From Candidatus Saccharimonadota bacterium (lineage in GTDB: Bacteria > Patescibacteriota > Saccharimonadia > QS-5-54-17): 64,000 nt of DNA. Below, piece by piece: positions 23,265 through 54,613 of this stretch (its first letter is position 1; the number at the start of each line of letters is the position of its first letter). Made by a program: the position numbers and the translations under genes. Below the pieces are notes generated by a model. The model did not search any database. It had not been told where the DNA came from and was given only the letters and a program-made list of their open reading frames with translations. The stretch is from positions 82,216 through 146,215 of the forward strand of contig JBJHCT010000001.1 in NCBI GenBank assembly GCA_050486185.1, written 5' to 3'.

Positions 23265-24368
23265 ATGCCTGATCAAGTCCAACTCAGAGGTGGCACAGAG
23301 TCTGAAAACGATGCTTTCACAGGTAAACAACGTGAAGTCACAGTCGATACTACTAATAACACTCTCAGAGTTCACGATAACTCTACCCTCGGTGGACATA
23401 AACTAGCTACTACTACTTACGTAGACAGTGAAGTAGACGCCCTTACAACCCAAACCAACCAACAGATCGATAACCTAACTCCAGCAGAACCTGACCAACC
23501 AGGATACGTCTATGTACCAGGTAGCTCTAAACACGGTACCTTGCCAGGCTTCTGGGTTATGAAGTACCCAGCTAAAGATGTCGGTGGTGTACCTACCTCC
23601 CAAGCTGAAGGTACCCCCTGGGCATCTATATCCTGGACTGATACTAAAGTCGCTATAGAGCAGCTAGGACCAGGATATCATCTCATCAATGACTATGAAT
23701 GGATGACAATCGCAGAAAACATAGCTGCAACTCCTATCAACAACCAAGACAGCAGTGGCTTCAAACTAGCTAGAGGTCACTCAGATAATAATCCTAGCAA
23801 TGCCATTGAATCAACTGAAGCAGATGAACCAGTAGTCTCAGGTTGTGACTTGACTAAACCTATGGATGATGTAGCTAATGCCTACCAAGCAGGAGTCTGT
23901 GAGATTAGAGGTGATGGCACTGACTCTAAAGGGTATGTTAATACCGGTAACTCTTGGAGTGAGGCTTGGACTACTTTGGGTGGTGGTCAAGAACAACTCA
24001 GAACCCATGTCCTCTCAAACGGTGAAGTACTGTGGGATATAGCGGGGAATACTTGGGAGTGGACCGATGCTTACGTAGTTGAGGTAGATGAGAAGCCAAC
24101 ACCGGTACAAGACTCTTATAACGACTACACCAATATTACTGACTACAAAGGCTTCTCCTACTTAAGACCCTCTAACCCGAGCTGGACTAGAGCCGATAAC
24201 GGCATAGGTAGTGTCCTCACTCATACTTTTACCGGTACCAGAGCCTTCAGGCGCGGAGGCAGCTGGATCACTGCCTCCCACGCTGGTGTCTTTGCCTTGG
24301 ACCTGGTCTACACGCCGTCGCATACGAACTTGGGCCAAGGTTTTCGTGTTGCTTGGTATGCTTCTTAG
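23265..24368 (+). CDS. Phage-tail-fibre N-terminal motif protein with a C-terminal FGE-sulfatase / C-type-lectin-fold domain (Mtd-like architecture)
   Basis: N-terminus VQLRGGTESENDAFTGKQREVTVDTTNNTLRVHDNSTLGGHK matches the conserved tail-fibre N motif. C-terminus has NTWEWTDAY...RGGSW...GFRVAW, the FGE/SUMF1-type fold used by DGR variable proteins. Confidence 0.6.
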   Translation: MPDQVQLRGGTESENDAFTGKQREVTVDTTNNTLRVHDNSTLGGHKLATTTYVDSEVDALTTQTNQQIDNLTPAEPDQPGYVYVPGSSKHGTLPGFWVMKYPAKDVGGVPTSQAEGTPWASISWTDTKVAIEQLGPGYHLINDYEWMTIAENIAATPINNQDSSGFKLARGHSDNNPSNAIESTEADEPVVSGCDLTKPMDDVANAYQAGVCEIRGDGTDSKGYVNTGNSWSEAWTTLGGGQEQLRTHVLSNGEVLWDIAGNTWEWTDAYVVEVDEKPTPVQDSYNDYTNITDYKGFSYLRPSNPSWTRADNGIGSVLTHTFTGTRAFRRGGSWITASHAGVFALDLVYTPSHTNLGQGFRVAWYAS

Positions 24369-29422: not shown

Positions 29423-30805
29423 TTAGCCTATACGGTAACGGATGATGACAATGCCGGAGCCGCCATTGCCGGCAACGGCTCCGCGACGACCACCACCCCC
29501 GCCTCCACCGGTGTTTGCCGCCCCATTGCCACCAACAGCCGCCCCTCCACCACCTTCTCCACCTAAGCCTTGCGACCCGCCGTACGAAGCGCCACCACCT
29601 CCACCTCCACGTGCGGTTGCTACTCCGGTAATAGAAGAGGTTAGACCTGCTCCTCCGTCACCACCCTTCGCACTTACGCCGTTCTGTCCCGCTACTCCTG
29701 CGCCACCACCTCCACCGGTAGAATAGTTGGATGATACTGCGTTACCACCGTTCGTACCCTGCCCAATAATGCCAACACCTCCGGTGGCCCCAGTGTTACC
29801 ACCACCACCGCCCGAGCCTCCTTGTGCGTTGCCCCGTTGGGAGCCGTCGCCTCCTTGTCCACCAACAGAAGTGATGGTCGAAAAGCTTGAGTCGCTCCCG
29901 TTGAATCCAGACTCTCCTCCGTTAATACCCCTTGATCCACCGGCACCGACGACGACCGTATGAACACCTTTGCTGATAAAAAATAATGGTTCGGCGACAG
30001 ATGAACCGCCAGACAGCTCACCCACGACAGCACACCGATAACCGCCTGCTCCACCACCTGCCGCAGAAGCGCCATCAGACGAGTCCGCTTCGCCACCCCC
30101 ACCCCCACCGATAACTAGATACTCAACCTCACCAGCGCCAGTAATAACCTCAAAAGATTGTGATGATCCAACTGTTGTGAAGTTATGTATACGGTAGATC
30201 TTGCCATCTATCTCTTCTTCGAAAACTTCATCTCCCCCTGTAGCAAAAAGAGACTGGATAAGTAGGCCGTTTTCGGTTAATACCCACTCATTCTGGGCCC
30301 TTTTTCTAAGTTGAGTTTCACCATACTTTCTAACAAAGTAGTATGGACCAGGAGCAAGAGGGCTTTTGGTACTAACGTTTTGGTTAGCGGTAACGGCTAG
30401 CTTGGCTTCATTATCTCTATATAGAGAGATTTTAGATCCTATCTCAAAGTTAGCCTCACTATCTTGGGGTACTTTAATGGTTACTACTTTGTTCTCATCT
30501 TCATCATCTAGGGTCAGGACTTTGCCAGCATCCTCTAGTGCTAGGGTGTATTCGTTGTTTATATCAGGAGTTAGAGCTTTTTCTTGGGCTATCTGGGTTT
30601 GATTAACACTTTCTTGGGTAGCTAATTCTGTAGGGTCAATTCCAGCTACATTAACACTACCATCAGCATTCATAGTGATTTGTGGGTTTACAGCATCAGG
30701 ATGTTTTAAAGACTTAGCATTTACACCACCTGAAGCATCCAACTTAATATTAGGCTCATTTGAGTCTGGATGCTGAATGTCATTGACTCTTAGCTTACTA
30801 CTCAA
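29423..30805 (-). CDS. Glycine-rich fibre/adhesin-like protein (N-terminal QHP..ADGSV repeats, central beta-rich region, about 200-aa poly-Gly C-terminal domain)
   Basis: N-terminal repeat shared with 18579..18872. C-terminal GGxGGxGG tracts resemble glycine-rich phage minor-tail or fibre domains. Last gene of a co-directional four-gene module. Confidence 0.55.
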   Translation of the reverse strand: MSSKLRVNDIQHPDSNEPNIKLDASGGVNAKSLKHPDAVNPQITMNADGSVNVAGIDPTELATQESVNQTQIAQEKALTPDINNEYTLALEDAGKVLTLDDEDENKVVTIKVPQDSEANFEIGSKISLYRDNEAKLAVTANQNVSTKSPLAPGPYYFVRKYGETQLRKRAQNEWVLTENGLLIQSLFATGGDEVFEEEIDGKIYRIHNFTTVGSSQSFEVITGAGEVEYLVIGGGGGGEADSSDGASAAGGGAGGYRCAVVGELSGGSSVAEPLFFISKGVHTVVVGAGGSRGINGGESGFNGSDSSFSTITSVGGQGGDGSQRGNAQGGSGGGGGNTGATGGVGIIGQGTNGGNAVSSNYSTGGGGGAGVAGQNGVSAKGGDGGAGLTSSITGVATARGGGGGGASYGGSQGLGGEGGGGAAVGGNGAANTGGGGGGGRRGAVAGNGGSGIVIIRYRIG

Positions 30806-30895: not shown

Positions 30896-33544
30896 CTACT
30901 CTTCCCTTCTCAATTTAACCACCTTGCCATGCTCTATAGTGTTATTATTTGTCTTTTTGGTGGGTAAACCTCCCTTATCATTTACACCTTTGTGATTATT
31001 CCCCCTGTTATGCCTGTTATTGTTCTGGTGGGTATTGTGTCGATTATTCTTGCCATTACCTTGCCTATTGTTGTTTTGCTGATTGTGCTGTTGGTTTGTA
31101 TGCTGGTTACTAGTTACATCTGCCCAGGAGCGAATCTCTGCTTCTACCTCTGCTCTAGAGGAGCTAAAGCTTCTAGAGTTTTCGATAATCTGCGGTATAA
31201 AATCTCCCGGTACCTCAGGGGTTTTAAGTGAAGTAGCGGCAAATGAAGAAACCTTCTCACCATCTATACTCATACTAATTACAAAGTGGCGGTTGTTGAG
31301 TTTGACTAGATCCTCTCCCTCGAAGGTAGGTGCGAAGTATTTAGCTAAATACGGAGCATCATCAGCACTGACCCTGAAGGATATAATTGTGCCTACGTTA
31401 CCAAATACAGCATCTCTGACCTCTTGAGACATCTGAGAGATGTATTGGTTGGCTATAGTTAGGTTTAATCCATATTTCCTAGCTTCAGATAAGATAACAG
31501 CAAAGGAATCAGTAGCGAAGTTCTGGAACTCATCGACGTATAGGTTAAAGGGCCTCCTATTCTCAATACCAGGTATATTAGCTCTACTCATGGCGGCTAA
31601 CTGGATTTTAGTCACCATCAGCGAGCCTAATGTAGCAGCGTTATCCTCTCCTACCTGTCCGCGTGATAGATTAACTATGAGGATCTTACCCTCATCCATC
31701 ATCTCCCTGATGTTGAAAGCGCTTTTAGGCTGCCCTATGATGTTTCTCATCAATGGATTAGCTGTAAAGGCTCCTACCTTGTTTAGAATCGGTGCTACGG
31801 CCTCTGAGGCGAACTTATCGTTCCAAGAAGCAAACTCATTAACCCAGAAGTTTTTCACTACTGGATCCTCAATACTATCTATGACTTTTTGACGATATCC
31901 CTTCTCGGTTAACATCCTAGTAATCCCTAGTAGTGTGGCGTTAGGATAGTCTAATAAGGCTAGAATGGTATACCTGAGGATATATTCTAGTCTTGGACCC
32001 CAAGAGTAGCCAAACATGCGCTTCAAAGACCCTACCACTTCTGATGATATATGTCCCTTTAAGCTTGGATCGGTGACTTCAAGGGGGTTAAAAGCTATGG
32101 GGTACTCAGTATCAGCTGGATTAAAATAGACTACGTCCTTAACCCTATCTTCAGGGATGTAGCGCAAGATATCGTTGGCAAAGTCACCGTGTGGATCAAT
32201 TACGGCAAACCCCTGATCATAGTAGACGTCAGATAGGGCTAGAAGTAGCATCAGGTGGGATTTACCGGTACCGGTTTGTCCTACTATATAGGTGTGTCTA
32301 CCTCTATCGCTTCTTTTGAGTCCGAACTGTCGGTGTTGACCCCTGAAGTTAGTTACTCCTATAGTGCTGAGTTCTCCGGGTTCAACTAGTTGCGGTGTAG
32401 GTATATTCGATGGCGGCTCAGCAGTTTTACTCTGAGCCCATATCATACTCGGAGTCTCAACATTGGCATGTGGTAGGTGATAAAGGCTAGCTAGTTCCTC
32501 AATATTTAGAACAAAACCTTTGTCCAAAAAGACTCTGGAGCGATACCGGCGCAAAGCCTCCTCTTGATAGTAGTGCTTTTTAATTTTGAAACTGTTGGTA
32601 TTATCATTAAACTGTTTGAAAGCACCGACCAGGGCCTGAATTCTCAGTCTAGATAGGTTTTTGTCGTTGCCTACATGACAAAGTCTAATACTAACTTCAT
32701 AACCGAGCTTTGAAATTTTGTCATTAACTCCTTGGACCATGGCTTTTTGTTGATCGGATAACTCTGCTGGCCCACCTTTTTCTCCTGCTTCTGGTGGTTT
32801 CCAGATAGCGATGAATAAATCATGAATTAACTTCTGTAACCCTCCTAAGAAACCCTCAAAACTCTTGCCGCTACTGCCATTTCGCAGTTTATTAATAAAG
32901 GTCTCTCCCCGTTTATGCCAGCTATCTTCCAGGGGTCTAGCCATAATCTGAATCCAAGCTTGTTCATTTTCTTCCTCTAGTTTTGATAGTACCGCTGTAA
33001 TACCGCCCAAAGGATCGACCTCGAAGCTGTTAAAGGTGCGTATCGGTAGAACGTCGCTATTAGTTAACCCTAACTCCACAGAGTGAGCTTGAACTTCTTC
33101 ACCAAACTCTTTACGGGAATAATCCTCTTCAACCTCAACGATATTAACACTAGGATACTGGGCGTAAACCTGTCCCTCTACGAAGTTACGTAAGTGTTTA
33201 GGAGTCCAGATAAAGAATCTAATATGCTTATCAACAGAGACGATTTCAAAGCTGATATGTTCTTGCAAAGCCCCTTCTTTAAGCAGTTCTTGTCTAGGCC
33301 TTAGGATTCCGTGCAGACTGGCAAATAGCTGCTCGGCTGATAGCTCAGCCTTGTCGTTCTCTCTAGGTACTTCCAGTAGTAGTAGTGAGTACTGGCTATC
33401 ACTCACCCACTTCTGCTTGCGTATGTTTTGCCAAATCAGAAAAGCTAGGACTATAACGATAACTATCCAGCCTCCCCAGTCGAAGATTAATCGACCCAAG
33501 AACTGGATAATAGTAAACAATACTTCAAAAACAATATTCATCAC
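30896..33544 (-). CDS. Membrane-anchored P-loop NTPase of the HerA/FtsK/VirB4-TraG (AAA_10/DUF87-like) class with a C-terminal Q/N/H-rich low-complexity tail
   Basis: N-terminal transmembrane helix. Walker A YIVGQTGTGKSHLM, followed by AVIDPHGDF as in HerA/VirB4-type ATPases. Walker B NLYVDEFQNF, then TIANQ. About 70 aa of N/Q/H-rich tail. Confidence 0.55.
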   Translation of the reverse strand: MMNIVFEVLFTIIQFLGRLIFDWGGWIVIVIVLAFLIWQNIRKQKWVSDSQYSLLLLEVPRENDKAELSAEQLFASLHGILRPRQELLKEGALQEHISFEIVSVDKHIRFFIWTPKHLRNFVEGQVYAQYPSVNIVEVEEDYSRKEFGEEVQAHSVELGLTNSDVLPIRTFNSFEVDPLGGITAVLSKLEEENEQAWIQIMARPLEDSWHKRGETFINKLRNGSSGKSFEGFLGGLQKLIHDLFIAIWKPPEAGEKGGPAELSDQQKAMVQGVNDKISKLGYEVSIRLCHVGNDKNLSRLRIQALVGAFKQFNDNTNSFKIKKHYYQEEALRRYRSRVFLDKGFVLNIEELASLYHLPHANVETPSMIWAQSKTAEPPSNIPTPQLVEPGELSTIGVTNFRGQHRQFGLKRSDRGRHTYIVGQTGTGKSHLMLLLALSDVYYDQGFAVIDPHGDFANDILRYIPEDRVKDVVYFNPADTEYPIAFNPLEVTDPSLKGHISSEVVGSLKRMFGYSWGPRLEYILRYTILALLDYPNATLLGITRMLTEKGYRQKVIDSIEDPVVKNFWVNEFASWNDKFASEAVAPILNKVGAFTANPLMRNIIGQPKSAFNIREMMDEGKILIVNLSRGQVGEDNAATLGSLMVTKIQLAAMSRANIPGIENRRPFNLYVDEFQNFATDSFAVILSEARKYGLNLTIANQYISQMSQEVRDAVFGNVGTIISFRVSADDAPYLAKYFAPTFEGEDLVKLNNRHFVISMSIDGEKVSSFAATSLKTPEVPGDFIPQIIENSRSFSSSRAEVEAEIRSWADVTSNQHTNQQHNQQNNNRQGNGKNNRHNTHQNNNRHNRGNNHKGVNDKGGLPTKKTNNNTIEHGKVVKLRREE

Positions 33545-33603: not shown

Positions 33604-34074
33604 TCATCTTAGACGGGCCGGTTTTGAATTATCTGGCTTATTTGCAAATCTAGGCCAAAGCAGAGCCTGTTTATCCATATTCCAAAGTCGCGCTGTAACC
33701 ACAACTCCGTTAGCTCTTGTCTTATTAAGGCTCCTTAGGTCAACCACTAATTGCCTAGTTCCATCGAAACACACACTCCTAAATTTCTGAAATGACCACT
33801 CAGTATTAGGTCCCCGTGTCCGGGCTTCCTGTAGTTTAGTTATATCTTGATCCTGATCAAGTACAACTTCTCTATCTAGGTATACTAGCTTATTTCTGTG
33901 ATGAACCGTTAAGTTGTTGAGATACTTAACCACAGCATCAATATTTGTATCGACTTCTCCTCGTAAATGGCTACCAAAGCAATCAATAGAGGCAGCGATA
34001 TATAGATCATCTTGCTTTGGAGCTTCTGGGCTTAATATGGGTGGAGGGGGAGCCTCGAAAAGAGACCTTGGCAT
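33604..34074 (-). CDS. Hypothetical 156-aa protein (Pro-rich N-terminus)
   Basis: ORF only, lying between the regulator and ATPase genes of the module. Confidence 0.4.
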   Translation of the reverse strand: MPRSLFEAPPPPILSPEAPKQDDLYIAASIDCFGSHLRGEVDTNIDAVVKYLNNLTVHHRNKLVYLDREVVLDQDQDITKLQEARTRGPNTEWSFQKFRSVCFDGTRQLVVDLRSLNKTRANGVVVTARLWNMDKQALLWPRFANKPDNSKPARLR

Positions 34075-34084
34075 ATTTTTAGCT

Positions 34085-35146
34085 TTACCCCTCAGCTAAG
34101 GCATAAGTAGCTTTAGATACGCGCTTAAACTTATCCTTGCTCTGCAAGTTCAAAACTACAGTAGTTGGTTTGACCTGTCTTTGTTTTAAGACTCTTTTAA
34201 CAATTTCATCTCGGTGAAGGGGTGACTCATCTTTAAGGATAGCCTCAATTACGTCCGATACTGTGCCTTGAGAAAAGCCCCACTCATTAAGAGCATAAAT
34301 ACCTCTACCGACTAGTACGAAACGAGAGTCTTTAATTAGCTCGTTATGTATAGCTTGAGTAGTAACGTCTTTGCGGTGAAAATCTGAATTCTTGATATGC
34401 TCAGCAATCTCGTTAAAATGCATCGGCTCTTTTTCGCGACTTAAGACGATGTAGATCTTATCTCTAATGCTTTTGGGATTAACTTGCGGCCAAGAAACTA
34501 GACCCCACTTATCATCCAAAGTAGCGATATGCTTACTAGATCTAATCAGTCCATGTAAGTGGTGCTCTTCTAATTTACCGTTAATGTTCTGGTGTATATC
34601 ACTAAGTGATACGGGTTTGCCTAAAGTACGAATTGTTTTCACCACTTCGTCATGTAAGGTTTTAGTGGTTTTGTGATCTCCGTGGTGATCTTTTAAGGCG
34701 AGAGCATGGTGGAAGTCGTCATTTTCGTTAATGATCACAATCTCTGGTATGAGATGGGCCAAGAAATTGACGTGAGCATGTTCTTCTGTGCCGGAGTGAG
34801 TACTAACTTCATGCAGGGGTACAATGCGGCCTAAAGACTCTAGAGCGCCCAAGAAGTGCTCCTTCAATGATTCTTTGTGGTTATGTTCCATCTGCTGCAG
34901 TTTGGTCAGAGTCTGTTTTTCTATCTGACGTACACGTTCGCGAGTAATTCCAAGCAGCTTGCCGATTTCTTCCAATGTTTCTTTTCTATCTTGCAGTCCA
35001 AAGCGTCTAGTGATGATTTCTCTTTCTCGGTCTTTATCTATAGTATCTAGAAAATCATTAACTATTTGAGCAATGTCTAAGCTTGGCTTGGCAGTAGTTT
35101 CCATCCGGCACCTTTCACTTTTTAGCTTTCTTTGATTATAAAACAA
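34085..35146 (-). CDS. Sigma-70 region-4 HTH fused to two HARE-HTH (RNAP-delta N-terminal-like) domains; probable transcription factor
   Basis: [25 protein letters not shown] is a sigma70_r4 signature. Two winged-helix HARE-HTH-like units: [13 protein letters not shown]...[17 protein letters not shown] and an earlier degenerate copy. A more likely start is the ATG at 35104 (METTAK), which has a GGTG RBS. Confidence 0.5.
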
Positions 35147-35193: not shown

Positions 35194-37479
35194 CTATTTT
35201 TTCTTGCCACGTTTTTTCTTATCAGGCGCCTTAGCAATCATGTCTTTAGCCTTGTCTTCATCGATAGTTTCAGGATCGACATCTTTAGGTACACTGACGT
35301 TTTTCTTACCATTAGTAACGTAGGGTCCGAAGCGACCATTGAGGACTTTGATATCTCCAAAAACAGCGATTTGTTGGTTTTTTACTTTCTCAATCTTCTC
35401 AGCTATAGCTAACTTAGCTACATCTTCGGTCACGGTCAGCGGGCCGTGAGTATTAGGTATAGGAGCATAGGTAGAGCCGGCTTTAACGTAGGGTCCGAAA
35501 CGACCGAAATTGGCAGTGATCTCTTGACCATCATCGGTCTTACCTACCGTTCGCGGTAGTTCGAATAACTCCAAGGCTTCTTCTAGAGTGATATCTTCTA
35601 TGCGTTTATTCTTTGGTATGGGAGCGAATTTAGGTTTCTCACCATCTTTATCGGCATGACCTAGCTGCAACATCGGGCCATATCTACCCATGCGCGCAAT
35701 GATGGGTTTATTACTTTTAGGGTCTATACCTACTTCCCTAGCACCGCTAGCTTCTTCACGGGATACATCTTCAGCTTCTTCAACCAATTTATGAAATGGC
35801 TTGTACCAATCGGCTATCATGCGGTTCCACTTTTCTTTACCCTGAGCTATTAGGTCGAACTCTTCTTCAGCTTCTTTAGTGAAGTCGTAATCAACGATAT
35901 GGGTAAAGTGTTTGCTTAAAAAGTCGTTGACAAGTATAGCTATCTGGGTCGGCAGTAGCTTATTGCGATCTCGGCCATATTCGATTGTTTCGGTTTCTTC
36001 TTGCAAGCGATTATTTTCTAGTTTGATGATAGTGATTTCTTTTTCGACACCTTCAACATCACCGCGCTCAACATACCCCCTATCCTGGATGGTATGGATA
36101 GTCGGTGCGTAAGTTGAGGGTCTACCGATACCCATCTCCTCTAATTTACGGACCAAAGCAGCTTCATTATATCTAGCTGGACCTCGCTTAATCGATTCTC
36201 TAGCTTCTAGAGTAATTAATTCTAGTGAATCACCTAAAGTAACTTGCGGTAGTAATACGTCCTCCATCTTGCTGTCTTGGTAGACCTTTAAGAACCCAGG
36301 GAATTTAATAACCTCGCCTTTAGCTACTAACATCTCTTCATGGTTACTACTAGCAATATGTATTTCGGTCTTCTCTAAAGTGGCCGGTGTCATCTGTGAG
36401 GCTAGAGTCTTGTTCCTAATTAGGCTATATAGTTTTTGCTGCTGCTCATCATCTCCGGCCGATTCTAGCTGTAAGTTCGTTGGCCTAATAGCCTCATGGG
36501 CTTCTTGAGCTCCGGCCTTTGATTTAAAATCTCTAGCCTGGTAATACTCCTCGCCATACTGACTTTTAATAACTTCAGTAATCTGAGTTTTGGCACTACT
36601 AGCTAAATTTACAGAGTCTGTACGCATATAGGTAATGTGTCCTGACTCATACAGTCTTTGAGCTAGTGTCATAGTCTGTCTAACGCTATAGCCTAGTTTG
36701 CGGGCTGCAGCTTGCTGCAGTGTTGAAGTAGTAAATGGTGGGCCTGGGTTGCGGTGAGTTGGCTTAGTATCGATCTCATCAACTTTGAAACTAGCATCGA
36801 TAGCTTGTTCTAGGAATTTCTTGGCCTCCGCATGCTCATCTATATAGCCCGCGAGTTTGGCAGGTAGTTCTTCACCAGACGCAGTTTTGAACGTAGCTGT
36901 TACTTTAAAGCGGTGTTCTGGGGTATAGTCTTTAATCTCTTGTTCGCGCTCAACTATTAGGCGCATAGCTACTGACTGCACACGCCCGGCGCTTAAGCCC
37001 GGCTTGACCTTTTTCCACAAGACCGGTGATATTTCATATCCGACCAATCTATCCAGCACCCTTCTAGCTTGTTGGGCATCGACTAGATTCTTATCGATCT
37101 CTCTAGGAGTTTTTATGGCACCGGTAACAGCTTCTTTGGTAATCTCGTGAAAAGCGATACGTTTAACTTGCTTCTTATCTAAATCAAGTGCTGCATGTAA
37201 GTGCCAGGCAATCGCCTCTCCTTCGCGGTCTTCATCGGTAGCTAGCCAAACAGTTTCTGCTTCACTGACTAGTTTCTTGAGTTTAGTAACCTGCTTTTTC
37301 TTATCCTCATTAACTTCATAGTTAGGCTCGAAGTTATTATCGATATCTATCCCCATATTTTTACTAGGTAGATCCCTTACGTGTCCATAGCTAGATGCCA
37401 CATGGTAGTCGCTGCCCAAAAACTTTTCAATAGTTTTAGCTTTGGCTGGGGATTCAACTATGACTAGGTTTTTGCTCAA
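35194..37479 (-). CDS. topA: DNA topoisomerase I
   Basis: MSKNLVIVESPAKAKTIEKFLG TOPRIM N-terminus and C-terminal zinc-ribbon-like repeats. Confidence 0.95.
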   Translation of the reverse strand: MSKNLVIVESPAKAKTIEKFLGSDYHVASSYGHVRDLPSKNMGIDIDNNFEPNYEVNEDKKKQVTKLKKLVSEAETVWLATDEDREGEAIAWHLHAALDLDKKQVKRIAFHEITKEAVTGAIKTPREIDKNLVDAQQARRVLDRLVGYEISPVLWKKVKPGLSAGRVQSVAMRLIVEREQEIKDYTPEHRFKVTATFKTASGEELPAKLAGYIDEHAEAKKFLEQAIDASFKVDEIDTKPTHRNPGPPFTTSTLQQAAARKLGYSVRQTMTLAQRLYESGHITYMRTDSVNLASSAKTQITEVIKSQYGEEYYQARDFKSKAGAQEAHEAIRPTNLQLESAGDDEQQQKLYSLIRNKTLASQMTPATLEKTEIHIASSNHEEMLVAKGEVIKFPGFLKVYQDSKMEDVLLPQVTLGDSLELITLEARESIKRGPARYNEAALVRKLEEMGIGRPSTYAPTIHTIQDRGYVERGDVEGVEKEITIIKLENNRLQEETETIEYGRDRNKLLPTQIAILVNDFLSKHFTHIVDYDFTKEAEEEFDLIAQGKEKWNRMIADWYKPFHKLVEEAEDVSREEASGAREVGIDPKSNKPIIARMGRYGPMLQLGHADKDGEKPKFAPIPKNKRIEDITLEEALELFELPRTVGKTDDGQEITANFGRFGPYVKAGSTYAPIPNTHGPLTVTEDVAKLAIAEKIEKVKNQQIAVFGDIKVLNGRFGPYVTNGKKNVSVPKDVDPETIDEDKAKDMIAKAPDKKKRGKKK

Positions 37480-37599: not shown

Positions 37600-39162
37600 T
37601 TAGAACAAACTAGTCTGAGAGGGTCGGTTGTTAAAACCTCCAGTATCATCACTATCTTTTTTGATATCTTCATTGTTTTGACCCTTTTCTACCAACTCAA
37701 CTAAAAATCGATATATCTCGACCATAGCCAAAGTATCAAGGGCGCAATACTTTACTAGATCATCAAATATCTTGTCTTTATCTGGTGCTTTTTCAATAGC
37801 TGCTTTGTACCAAGAACTTTGTGCGCTCATGCCGTCGGCTATATCTAAATCTCGGTAACTTAGCTCTGGTGCGATGGCTGGCAAGACCTTTTTGATACTA
37901 GCACTACCGGCAAAGCTCTTGTCGATATACCAGCCCTTAGAAAAAGGTATCATCAAATCAACAATTCGCTTATTGACTTGTTTCATCCAACTCTTATATT
38001 CCGGTACCAACTCGCCCATATCGCTGTTTCTACCCATCTCAAAAGCCTGATACCAGACCAAGATACTTCCCTCACCTCCTAAGTCTTGATGCAATCTCTC
38101 AAGTAGTCTCGGTGTAGGGTTATCATCTCCTCTATCTAGGTATTCAAAATGCTGCAACTCACCCCCAGGGCTATCGAGTACATGCAAGGAGTACTGGAAA
38201 GGAATCTCTTGATAGGCGCCGGTGCCAGGATAGATCGGTACGGAATGTGAGACAGTCTCATAGTCTAAAAACCACAACGGAAACTCTAGCTTATTTAAAA
38301 ACTTCTCAATCTTCTCAAGTTCAATAGGCGGTGTTTCTTGCCAAGCTTTAATCTGGCTTTGTTGACGAGCATTAAAACCCTCTAGATCATTTACTTGCTT
38401 TAAGCTATCTACTCCACCAGCATGTAGCAGCTTTACATCTTCAGGTTTTAACTGAGCTAGCTTGTATATATGTTCCGGTGGTAGCTCTGGGTTTAAGTGT
38501 AAATACATCGGCAACCAAATACCTAAGTTACCGGCATATTCTAGGCCTAAATCTGGGCAGGTTTTTTGATCTAATACCTTTAAGGCTTTGGGTATTTGCT
38601 GCTCTACTTCAGGTATTCTCTGTTTGACTTTGTAGGTGATCTTTTTTTGACTGACTAGTAGCTCTGGTTCGATATTCTCTCCTCGTTTGTACTCTTTATT
38701 AACATAAAGTAGATAGATATCACCTACCTTGACCCCCATCTCCTCCCAGGCTACGGCCTGAAAAGCCAGATCCGATAGATGATCATCCTTCACGCTAGTT
38801 GAGCTCTTTACTTCATATAGGTCCCAAGTCTTGCCGCTACGTTTTAAGACGTCACTTTTAACTAGTAACCCTCTATCCGTAAATGCGGTGGCTTGAAAGA
38901 TTGTTTCAACACTCTCATCTTCCATTAGTCTTTTAGTTTGATTAACTAGCAGGTCAAACTCCCAAGGTTTAGCATCAACTAATTTAGCGCTCGGGAACAA
39001 TTTACGAGCTTGGGCTTCAAAAGCATGCCCTTTATCGAACATAAATTGATCGGACGTGGTTATCGGTGGTAGTTTCTTCTTATCGAACTTCTCTAGCCAT
39101 AAATAGCCTGGATGAATTAGCCAGTGCATGAAGTTGGATTTGGATAGGTATTTACTCAACAT
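37600..39162 (-). CDS. DUF2779-like protein with a RecB/Cas4-type PD-(D/E)XK nuclease core
   Basis: N-terminus LSKSNFMHWLIHPGYLWL resembles DUF2779 starts. TWDLYEVKSS looks like a hhDxK-type nuclease motif. Confidence 0.4.
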   Translation of the reverse strand: MLSKYLSKSNFMHWLIHPGYLWLEKFDKKKLPPITTSDQFMFDKGHAFEAQARKLFPSAKLVDAKPWEFDLLVNQTKRLMEDESVETIFQATAFTDRGLLVKSDVLKRSGKTWDLYEVKSSTSVKDDHLSDLAFQAVAWEEMGVKVGDIYLLYVNKEYKRGENIEPELLVSQKKITYKVKQRIPEVEQQIPKALKVLDQKTCPDLGLEYAGNLGIWLPMYLHLNPELPPEHIYKLAQLKPEDVKLLHAGGVDSLKQVNDLEGFNARQQSQIKAWQETPPIELEKIEKFLNKLEFPLWFLDYETVSHSVPIYPGTGAYQEIPFQYSLHVLDSPGGELQHFEYLDRGDDNPTPRLLERLHQDLGGEGSILVWYQAFEMGRNSDMGELVPEYKSWMKQVNKRIVDLMIPFSKGWYIDKSFAGSASIKKVLPAIAPELSYRDLDIADGMSAQSSWYKAAIEKAPDKDKIFDDLVKYCALDTLAMVEIYRFLVELVEKGQNNEDIKKDSDDTGGFNNRPSQTSLF

Positions 39163-54537: not shown

Positions 54538-54613
54538 GGCCCCATCGTCTAGTGGCCTAGGACACCAGGTTCTCATCCTGGAAACCGGGGTTCGACTCCC
54601 CGTGGGGTCACCA
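54538..54613 (+). tRNA. tRNA-Glu (anticodon CUC)
   Basis: Hand-folded cloverleaf: acceptor GGCCCCA/TGGGGTC, anticodon stem CCAGG/CCTGG with loop TTCTCAT, T-arm CGGGG-TTCGACT-CCCCG, encoded CCA. Confidence 0.85.

Follow-up and report, generated by a model that had tools for sequence, protein, structure and literature searches.

To which class of motor does a large membrane-anchored ATPase belong when it is encoded among chromosomal housekeeping genes, and what might it move? The question is raised by a gene on the reverse strand of a 64-kb stretch of DNA (‘the window’), whose 882-aa product had been described, from the letters alone, as a HerA/VirB4-type protein with a prion-like tail. The ORF list gives GTG as its first codon and ATG as its second. 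Public assemblies hold a protein identical to its product (P0001), to which precomputed Pfam annotation assigns DUF8128 (PF26449), DUF87 and TrwB_AAD_bind. The ORF is as first described, and so is its layout of anchor, conserved domain, P-loop motor and tail:

30896..33544, reverse strand: whole gene, DUF8128 plus T4CP-like ATPase; 882 aa, GTG start, stop codon at 30896-30898
33422..33544, reverse strand: N-terminal membrane anchor, residues 1-41 (Kyte-Doolittle scan)
32345..33415, reverse strand: DUF8128 (PF26449) domain, residues 44-400; resembles the VirB4 N-terminal domain in predicted fold
31130..32344, reverse strand: P-loop motor domain of the VirB4/VirD4 clade, residues 401-805
32258..32281, reverse strand: Walker A, GQTGTGKS, residues 422-429 (motif scan)
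31691..32068, reverse strand: all-alpha insertion of the motor domain, about residues 493-618; counterpart of the coupling-protein all-alpha domain
31526..31543, reverse strand: Walker B, LYVDEF, residues 668-673 (motif scan)
30899..31129, reverse strand: C-terminal tail of low complexity, polar and basic, residues 806-882, about 76 aa (composition)
30908..30943, reverse strand: conserved motif near the C-terminus, N-T-I-E-H-G-K-V-V-K-L-R, residues 868-879 (homologue comparison)

Residues 19-41 are strongly hydrophobic and are followed by RKQK, while residues 1-21 form a weaker, amphipathic stretch. Hydropathy thus predicts one certain transmembrane helix, in agreement with the single N-terminal helix of the sequence-only reading; the two segments possibly form a hairpin. 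A W/hydrophobic/W-Q-N-x-R-R pattern near the anchor is kept in homologues. The protein was also taken to be a membrane-anchored ATPase, and this holds: it belongs to the VirB4/VirD4 clade of the FtsK/HerA superfamily. In Walker A, G422, G427 and K428 are invariant among 68 species representatives; the Y-V-D-E-F of Walker B is invariant, or nearly so, in the same set and also in the split-gene form and the second paralogue. Loss of the Walker motifs in orthologues had been named as one result that would tell against a translocation ATPase; because they are invariant there, that objection falls away. As in coupling proteins, a cytoplasmic nucleotide-binding domain carrying Walker A and Walker B comes after the membrane anchor (hydropathy, motif scan), and an all-alpha domain is inserted into this nucleotide-binding domain.

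‘HerA/VirB4-type’, the name first given to this core, was right about the superfamily and not about the nearest class, which by profiles and BLASTP is the TrwB/TraD type. Pfam TrwB_AAD_bind scores 33.0 (cut-off 20.5) and TraG-D_C 24.2 (cut-off 22), and DUF87 is also above its cut-off on the motor. The top NCBIfam matches are TraD and VirD4-like models, although no NCBIfam equivalog cut-off is reached (e.g. SXT_TraD, 51.7 versus 366), and the best PDB matches by sequence are TrwB and DotL. BLASTP gives E=1e-10 for R388 TrwB versus E=0.28 for the VirB4 protein TrwK. With the family HMM, TrwB scores 34 bits, TrsE 20.6 and TrsK 17.4, and TrwK is non-significant; for this profile the monoderm VirB4 (TrsE) and the monoderm VirD4 (TrsK) are therefore about equal, and the T4CP label of the motor is supported mainly by its similarity to the TrwB/TraD type. 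HerA profile matches are confined to the generic P-loop region. Structure comparison is ambiguous, with VirB4-CTD, DndH-C, TrwB, DotL and HerA ranking almost equally. Judged by sequence, then, the nearest relatives of the motor are coupling proteins of the TrwB/TraD type, with VirB4 and HerA farther off. A Sulfitobacter protein, 42.6% identical, was considered as the closest plasmid relative and set aside as uninformative because it is a 395-aa orphan ATPase amid transposases.

The domain between anchor and motor, residues 44-400, is about 350 aa long and well conserved among homologues; phmmer with it reaches 2,396 cluster representatives. It had been described as a domain of unknown function of some 380 aa, and a literature search on DUF8128 found no papers. 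Its structural matches are led by VirB4, HerA/HAS-barrel structures being absent from them, and in predicted fold it resembles the N-terminal domain of VirB4. For this part of the protein ‘VirB4-class’ would thus be a better guess than could have been known when it was made. The likeness is one of predicted fold only: homology at the sequence level was sought by hhalign against single sequences, Pfam scan and hmmsearch, and none was detected. A permissive scan of 34 DUF8128 members with the VirB4-NTD Pfam families gave zero matches, and hhalign of DUF8128 against TrsD of pGO1 was non-significant. Stand-alone DUF8128 proteins were considered as the TrsD of T4SS clusters and rejected; the split gene lies beside a HARE-HTH gene, without T4SS genes.

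The tail is where the first description departs furthest from what comparison reveals. The quoted peptide, NQQHNQQNNNRQGNGKNNRHNTHQNNNRHNRGNNH, is present in the 882-aa protein, and in residues 811-852 N accounts for 38%, Q for 17% and H for 14%, whereas elsewhere in the protein N stands at about 5%; such a bias is far beyond chance. Among 119 close homologues, however, Q/N richness is not conserved. A polar, fast-evolving tail occurs in all 119 (37-174 aa; 18% hydrophobic residues versus 44% in the body), and its net charge is positive in 86% of cases, with a median of +7 across the family. The dominant residues vary by lineage, relatives favouring Q, K, S, P, R or G; in the pooled tails Q, S, P, K, R and G lead, at 8-10% each. 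The highest N fraction of all belongs to the tail from this genome, and its N/Q/H richness is a lineage quirk peculiar to this genome. The comparison does not support ‘prion-like’ as a functional feature: the bias is the extreme of the 119, and what is conserved is a polar tail, basic in most homologues, and a motif. Nor are such tails unusual on translocation ATPases, as had been supposed, because long C-terminal extensions are frequent on coupling proteins, e.g. F TraD and DotL. Known coupling-protein tails are acidic and this one is basic, an observation that speaks against a coupling role. Expansion of a DNA tandem repeat was considered as the origin of the tail, and no repeat was found in the tail-coding DNA.

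The motif is short and hydrophobic, with the family consensus G-x-[LI]-x-x-[DG]-[EQ]-x-[IV]-x-L-R. It lies within the last 20 residues in 102 of the 119 homologues (3.6 expected from shuffled tails), and 35 of 67 species representatives have a relaxed form of it (4.4 expected). In oral Nanosynbacter relatives it is internal rather than terminal, and the split-form ATPase ends in a zinc ribbon in place of the tail.

The gene is an ordinary orthologue of a family that has already been catalogued, is functionally uncharacterized and is of hybrid architecture. Sequence and gene order identify it as the Saccharimonadia positional orthologue of SEML1_0293 of S. epibionticum, which matches it in its Pfam coordinates and lies in a gene order, dprA...topA...sigma70_r4/HARE-HTH...T4CP, that is also that of the window. 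SEML1_0293 is one of the two near-universal Patescibacterial VirD4-like ATPases, which are almost never near virB4. A CONJscan-type survey, in which such proteins are classed as T4CP, counted 5,713 of them in 2,918 of 3,035 Patescibacteria genomes, 148 of the 5,713 being near virB4 (PMC12102498). In the same survey T4CP homologues occur in 96% of assemblies and VirB4 in 80%; because they are the more widespread, many genomes may carry the ATPase without a T4SS, which tells against a coupling role. Published Tn-seq in S. epibionticum found SEML1_0293 non-essential, although reads for it seem to drop about 4-fold, and its HARE-HTH neighbour, SEML1_0294, essential; the other paralogue, SEML1_0142, is essential as well (Wang et al. 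2023, PMC10633639). That the T4SS is essential in this organism and SEML1_0293 is not speaks against a coupling role. Tandem second paralogues (loci L076, L079 and L082) have DUF8128 and lack the long tail. A division into two clades, of HARE-linked and unlinked loci, was considered, and average-linkage clustering gave a single continuum of 39-100% identity.

Upstream of the ATPase gene lie the following:

33604..34074, reverse strand: 156-aa orphan ORF between the HARE-HTH gene and the ATPase gene, without family matches
34085..35146, reverse strand: sigma-70 region 4 + HARE-HTH + winged-helix protein, 353 aa, the upstream partner (Pfam, NCBIfam)
35194..37479, reverse strand: topA, DNA topoisomerase I, a conserved upstream neighbour (Pfam)

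Of 88 loci, just one contains the orphan ORF, and that one comes from the same organism. In 61 of 79 loci the gene immediately upstream, on the same strand, is a sigma70-r4/HARE-HTH gene, and topA is upstream in 54 of 88. The HARE-HTH link extends to the Parcubacteria type, in which DUF8128 and the ATPase are separate genes (adjoining in five of six loci): there the HARE-HTH gene is upstream in all six, though other neighbours differ. An apparent HARE-HTH::T4CP fusion in locus L010 is an artefact, a masked run of N bridging two genes. After the ATPase gene of the window come genes for a Gly-rich protein and FtsQ; SEML1_0293 is followed instead by a GNAT gene and CRISPR-Cas9. No T4SS component was recognized among the about 50 ORFs of the window, as the sequence-only reading had said, nor was a relaxase gene; that reading also proposed to check whether orthologues sit beside T4SS genes elsewhere, and no T4SS or relaxase genes were found adjoining them. 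The cluster with VirB3, VirB6 or VirB8 that marks a VirB4 is likewise absent from the window and the orthologue loci. Absence of T4SS genes from the window and the orthologue flanks speaks against a coupling role. Elsewhere in the window, a DGR template repeat for an Mtd_N-like gene was sought, and there is no direct repeat of at least 50 bp in 19-31 kb.

What, then, does the protein do? The explanation we prefer, which as a whole we think has an even chance of being right, is that it is the orthologue, in Saccharimonadia, of an ATPase of the VirD4/TrwB/TraD kind, hybrid in architecture and inherited on the chromosome across the Patescibacteria. The DUF8128-ATPase would assemble into a ring on the cytoplasmic side of the membrane, where it would use ATP to engage and move a macromolecule, most plausibly DNA or nucleoprotein. 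Its VirB4-like N-domain would serve as a membrane-proximal docking scaffold. The VirB4 N-domain contacts VirB3 and VirB8, and in like manner that of the DUF8128-ATPase probably docks onto the distant chromosomal T4SS. The basic tail would be a flexible tether whose terminal motif captures nucleic acid or a partner, by analogy with the tail of F TraD, which binds TraM. That partner might be the HARE-HTH protein, whose gene is co-transcribed. The function would be accessory, not essential, for epibiotic growth.

The DUF8128-ATPase might instead work independently of the T4SS, as a DNA translocase on the cell's own chromosome, acting with the HARE-HTH protein in segregation, septum clearance or transcription-membrane coupling. 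FtsK, SftA and Streptomyces TraB do act alone as translocases. Against this stand the absence of any match to FtsK-type profiles (Pfam, NCBIfam) and of the FtsK_SpoIIIE motor, gamma domain and 4TM N-terminus that define FtsK/SpoIIIE; the dispensability of SEML1_0293; and the canonical, essential FtsK of S. epibionticum, SEML1_0096, which rules out that the protein replaces FtsK. The dcw cluster is convergent with the ATPase gene, not co-transcribed, and does not adjoin the split forms; the dprA-topA adjacency, for its part, is an old bacterial arrangement. We consider such a translocase rather unlikely. A divergent VirB4-type ATPase, with both N- and C-domains (compare the VirB3-VirB4 fusion), that assembles or energizes a secretion system rather than receiving its substrate is more doubtful still. 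The VirB4-NTD families match none of the 34 members, the motor profiles (TrwB_AAD_bind, TraG-D_C, TraD and VirD4-like models) favour a T4CP, TrwB is matched where TrwK is not, relatives have a separate, bona fide VirB4 inside their T4SS cluster (SEML1_0008), and the published class is T4CP (PMC12102498).

In the window dprA is about 15 kb from the ATPase gene, and 40 of 88 loci have it no more than 8 kb upstream. This linkage raises the prospect of a cytoplasmic motor for DNA uptake in natural transformation, downstream of type IV pili and ComEC. The reported natural competence of Saccharibacteria, a weak NCBIfam match to CedD, an archaeal DNA-import ATPase, and the basic tail all fit. The dprA linkage, however, runs via topA and is likely ancestral, it is absent from split-gene lineages in which the HARE-HTH link persists, and no com genes adjoin the ATPase gene, so that we find this role very improbable. 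To an anti-phage system with a HerA/DndH/MADS-type ATPase we give next to no credence: defence genes are usually patchy and mobile, but this gene is near-universal, vertically inherited and fixed in place among housekeeping genes, no Sir2, NurA, Dnd or Mad genes adjoin it, and PADLOC matches span the generic P-loop region only.

Patescibacteria need bacterial hosts, and among their essential equipment is a chromosomal T4SS whose gene cluster lacks a recognizable coupling protein (Wang et al. 2023, PMC10633639) and for which no substrate is known. Almost every genome encodes two orphan ATPases of the coupling type, which are obvious candidates for substrate choice or for a quite different DNA-handling role. 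Several experimental handles are at hand: an N-domain that resembles the region by which VirB4 attaches to the inner-membrane complex of the T4SS, a link to the HARE-HTH/sigma-r4 gene across CPR classes, and a conserved terminal motif on the tail, in Saccharibacteria that are now genetically tractable. The architecture is also relevant to the divergence of VirB4 and VirD4. A more ambitious reading, which we hold only tentatively and think unlikely as a whole, is that a Patescibacteria-wide hybrid of VirB4 N-domain and VirD4 motor forms with HARE-HTH a possibly T4SS-independent module. The hybrid may be an intermediate, still extant, between VirB4 and VirD4, the signature ATPases of the T4SS, or else a product of domain shuffling; with the adjacent sigma70-r4/HARE-HTH protein it could constitute an undescribed two- or three-gene membrane module for handling nucleic acids, in which the basic tail and terminal motif may be the contact point.

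Set beside known systems, the DUF8128-ATPase differs from canonical coupling proteins (R388 TrwB, F TraD, VirD4 and Legionella DotL) in the 350-aa VirB4-NTD-like domain between anchor and motor, in its basic rather than acidic tail, in its chromosomal housekeeping context away from relaxase and T4SS, in scores far below every NCBIfam equivalog cut-off, and in the two paralogues per genome. From VirB4 (R388 TrwK, Thermoanaerobacter VirB4-CTD 4ag5, pGO1 TrsE) it is set apart by its lack of sequence-level similarity to the VirB4 NTD or TrsD, a motor closer in sequence to TrwB, an anchor and long tail of its own, and a gene that lies outside the T4SS cluster, where relatives keep a separate, true VirB4. 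FtsK/SpoIIIE and HerA are ring translocases of the same ATPase superfamily, and FtsK, too, has both a membrane anchor and a long linker of low complexity.

The gene at issue is not a one-off: it is an unremarkable orthologue within a Patescibacterial family that is catalogued and uncharacterised. Its 882-aa product, present as the sequence-only reading described, combines a membrane anchor, a predicted fold resembling that of the VirB4 N-terminal domain, a conserved T4CP-like motor, and a basic tail in which a motif is conserved. Its gene is near-universal, vertically inherited, tightly linked to a HARE-HTH/sigma-r4 gene, and non-essential in one cultured species. An identical protein (P0001, 100%) occurs in public assemblies; homologues number more than 5,700, the nearest of them Saccharibacterial.

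Main features of the ATPase
30896-33544, minus strand: ORF, start codon GTG, next codon ATG
Residues 19-41: single strongly hydrophobic segment, then RKQK
Residues 422-429: Walker A, GQTGTGKS
Residues 668-673: Walker B, LYVDEF

Hydropathy bears out the proposed N-terminal anchor, and places a weaker amphipathic stretch N-terminal of it. Walker A, Walker B and several further motifs are invariant across 75 close homologues and 68 species representatives, as the earlier assignment demanded, and also in the split-gene form and second paralogue described below. The class then suggested, HerA/VirB4, was correct as to the broader clade; in sequence, the motor leans instead to the TrwB/TraD coupling type. 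Pfam TrwB_AAD_bind covers residues 414-737 (33 bits; cut-off 20.5), and DUF87 and TraG-D_C likewise exceed threshold. The top NCBIfam matches are TraD and VirD4-like models and archaeal CedD, all far short of the equivalog cut-offs, and the top PDB matches by sequence are TrwB and DotL. The motor aligns with TrwB of R388 (E=1e-10; 24% identity over 318 residues), but not significantly with the R388 VirB4, TrwK (E=0.28). A motor family HMM scores 34 bits against TrwB, 20.6 against the monoderm VirB4 TrsE and 17.4 against the monoderm VirD4 TrsK, and is non-significant against TrwK. On these matches and scores, the motor belongs firmly in the VirB4/VirD4 clade, not in a non-translocase AAA family, the outcome that would have overturned the earlier assignment.

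In nearly all of 120 homologues among the matches listed, PF26449 (DUF8128) is N-terminal and T4CP-type domains follow it. The ~380-aa domain first reported as of unknown function is DUF8128; sequence comparison did not connect it to VirB4, but its predicted fold is VirB4-NTD-like. Residues 44-400 were modelled with confidence (pLDDT 85.8, pTM 0.82). Foldseek agrees independently with a first structural comparison, likewise led by VirB4: its top 13 matches for the model in the PDB are all TrwK chains (probability 0.99-1.0). We would assign these to the VirB4 N-terminal domain because the modelled region has no P-loop, the tools reporting no aligned ranges. Comparison by hhalign with TrwK-NTD and with TrsD of plasmid pGO1 gave probabilities below 1%, hmmsearch for a DUF8128/VirB4-NTD link was non-significant, and in a Pfam scan at permissive settings no VirB4 family matched any of 34 DUF8128 members. 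Our claim is therefore one of probable resemblance in fold, with homology unproven. We found no paper that mentions DUF8128; the structure-based annotation of the S. epibionticum orthologue by Wang et al. covers the P-loop part only (PMC10633639).

The last 76 residues are of low complexity. The N/Q/H-rich composition noted earlier is real (residues 811-852: N 38%, Q 17%, H 14%), and no tandem repeat was found in the DNA encoding the tail. Every one of 119 full-length close homologues ends in a tail, 37-174 aa long (median 91), with 18% hydrophobic residues against 44% in the body and a median net charge of +7 (net positive in 86%). Its dominant residues vary freely (Q, K, S, P, R or G), and the asparagine fraction seen here is the highest of the 119. 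What is conserved is a motif near the C-terminus, G-x-[LI]-x-x-[DG]-[EQ]-x-[IV]-x-L-R, which lies within the last 20 residues in 102 of the 119 (3.6 expected from shuffles). In a broader species set it is less regular (relaxed pattern in 35/67; 4.4 expected), and oral Nanosynbacter relatives carry it internally, ahead of an R/K cluster. Since composition drifts while basic charge and motif are kept, ‘prion-like’ does not hold for the family: judged from sequence, the conserved property is that of a basic, flexible tether with a putative docking motif, and the N-rich tail is a lineage quirk.

GC content is ~42% throughout the window, whose housekeeping genes include CTP synthase, RecO, a class II aminoacyl-tRNA synthetase (HGTP-anticodon type), the dcw cluster, TopA, DprA, Der (EngA-type GTPase), Pth, GltX and two-component systems. 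Four further Saccharimonadia genomes share one arrangement: topA, in some cases a gene for PBP1a, the sigma70_r4/HARE-HTH gene and lastly the ATPase gene, which converges on the dcw cluster's end. We fetched 88 loci, of which 79 had upstream sequence long enough to score the HARE-HTH neighbour; it lies directly upstream, on the same strand, in 61, mostly with a gap of <100 bp and in some with overlap. As the partner joins a sigma region-4 HTH to an RNAP-delta-like HARE-HTH, it possibly ties the ATPase to transcription or DNA handling. The window carries two lineage-specific insertions:

33604-34074, minus strand: 156-aa orphan ORF, without family matches and confined to this organism among the 88 loci; it separates the HARE-HTH and ATPase genes, elsewhere adjacent
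29423-30805, minus strand: 460-aa Gly_rich_2 protein, between the ATPase gene and an ftsQ-like gene; taken as an insertion because the 88 loci hold no homologue

The GTG/ATG start is preceded, a few bases 5', by a TATAAT-like hexamer, so this genome may transcribe the ATPase gene from a separate promoter, possibly a leaderless one.

Other genes were noted in passing. A 367-aa Mtd_N (major-tropism-determinant N-terminal domain) protein (23265-24368, plus strand), with a weak FGE-sulfatase/C-type-lectin-like match, lies within the dcw cluster and separates ftsI from mraY, which adjoin in four related genomes. It resembles the target protein of a diversity-generating retroelement; a search of 19-31 kb yielded no template repeat of >=50 bp, and the window showed no reverse transcriptase. 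Upstream of topA is the gene for a DUF2779 protein that has a Cas4-like nuclease domain (37600-39162, minus strand); the closest relative has this gene too. Signalling genes are unusually dense for a small genome (51779-58176 and 12952-13695): three histidine kinases, two response regulators and a Fic/DOC protein, whose gene adjoins tRNA-Glu (54538-54613).

Searched alone, DUF8128 matched ~2,400 cluster representatives, which fall into two length classes; the ~420-aa class is a split version of the gene, with a Parcubacteria label on at least one cluster. The split DUF8128 gene lies immediately 3' of the sigma70_r4/HARE-HTH gene in 6/6 loci, and a T4CP ATPase of 528-605 aa follows in 5/6 (two run off the contig end); the remaining neighbours all differ. 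These ATPases end in a zinc ribbon, not a low-complexity tail. Three loci, one of them with a Berkelbacteria label, have immediately upstream of the long-tailed gene a second DUF8128-T4CP paralogue, whose C-terminus is short and ordinary; the two genes touch or overlap in 2/3, which suggests that they function together.

Split-gene (Parcubacteria-type) ATPases with CxxC...CxxC zinc ribbon (zf_Tbcl_2): L007 11321-13138; L093 8356-10143
Second paralogue, 815-834 aa: L076 1232-3679; L079 4817-7321; L082 1128-3587

In one complete genome (CP064960.1; L084 7845-9612) the ATPase gene appears fragmented, with parts of 279 aa and 203 aa, either a pseudogene or the result of long-read indel errors.

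The ATPase would assemble at the membrane into a ring that acts as an ATP-driven motor and engage DNA or nucleoprotein; the N-domain would dock it, most plausibly onto a distant T4SS, and the tail would tether a partner or nucleic acid. As the sequence-only reading had it, no T4SS component is recognisable nearby, here throughout the 64-kb window. Quinonero-Coronel et al. found 5,713 VirD4-like T4CPs in 2,918/3,035 Patescibacteria genomes, only 148 of them near virB4, with VirB4 present in 2,417 genomes, and raised exaptation as a possibility (PMC12102498). In S. epibionticum the T4SS is essential and its cluster has no recognisable coupling protein; another T4CP-like protein, SEML1_0142, is essential (PMC10633639). 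SEML1_0293, which we take to be the orthologue, has the same Pfam coordinates and likewise SEML1_0294 (sigma70_r4/HARE-HTH, essential), topA and dprA upstream. It is non-essential at 3/3 time points; its normalised reads fall ~4-fold over outgrowth (5,817, 2,940, 1,372) and the Tn-seq reads of non-essential neighbours stay flat, the meaning of these unlabelled columns being inferred (PMC10633639), which hints that its loss is mildly costly to fitness.

A docked coupling-type motor has four main rivals. One is a chromosomal DNA translocase independent of any T4SS; canonical FtsK is present and essential in S. epibionticum (PMC10633639). Another is a divergent VirB4-type ATPase, which the predicted N-domain fold would suit and the motor's leaning to TrwB would not. 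The others are a motor for DNA uptake and a defence ATPase, and for the latter the PADLOC matches are generic only.

Among known systems, the pGO1 transfer region (L091 31499-35718) has a topoisomerase III gene just upstream of the VirD4-like trsK, an order that echoes the Saccharibacterial topA...T4CP arrangement and may be coincidence. With its hybrid VirB4-NTD-like and T4CP architecture, fused and split forms, two paralogues, HARE-HTH linkage and terminal motif, the family is a moderately interesting variation on the coupling-protein theme.
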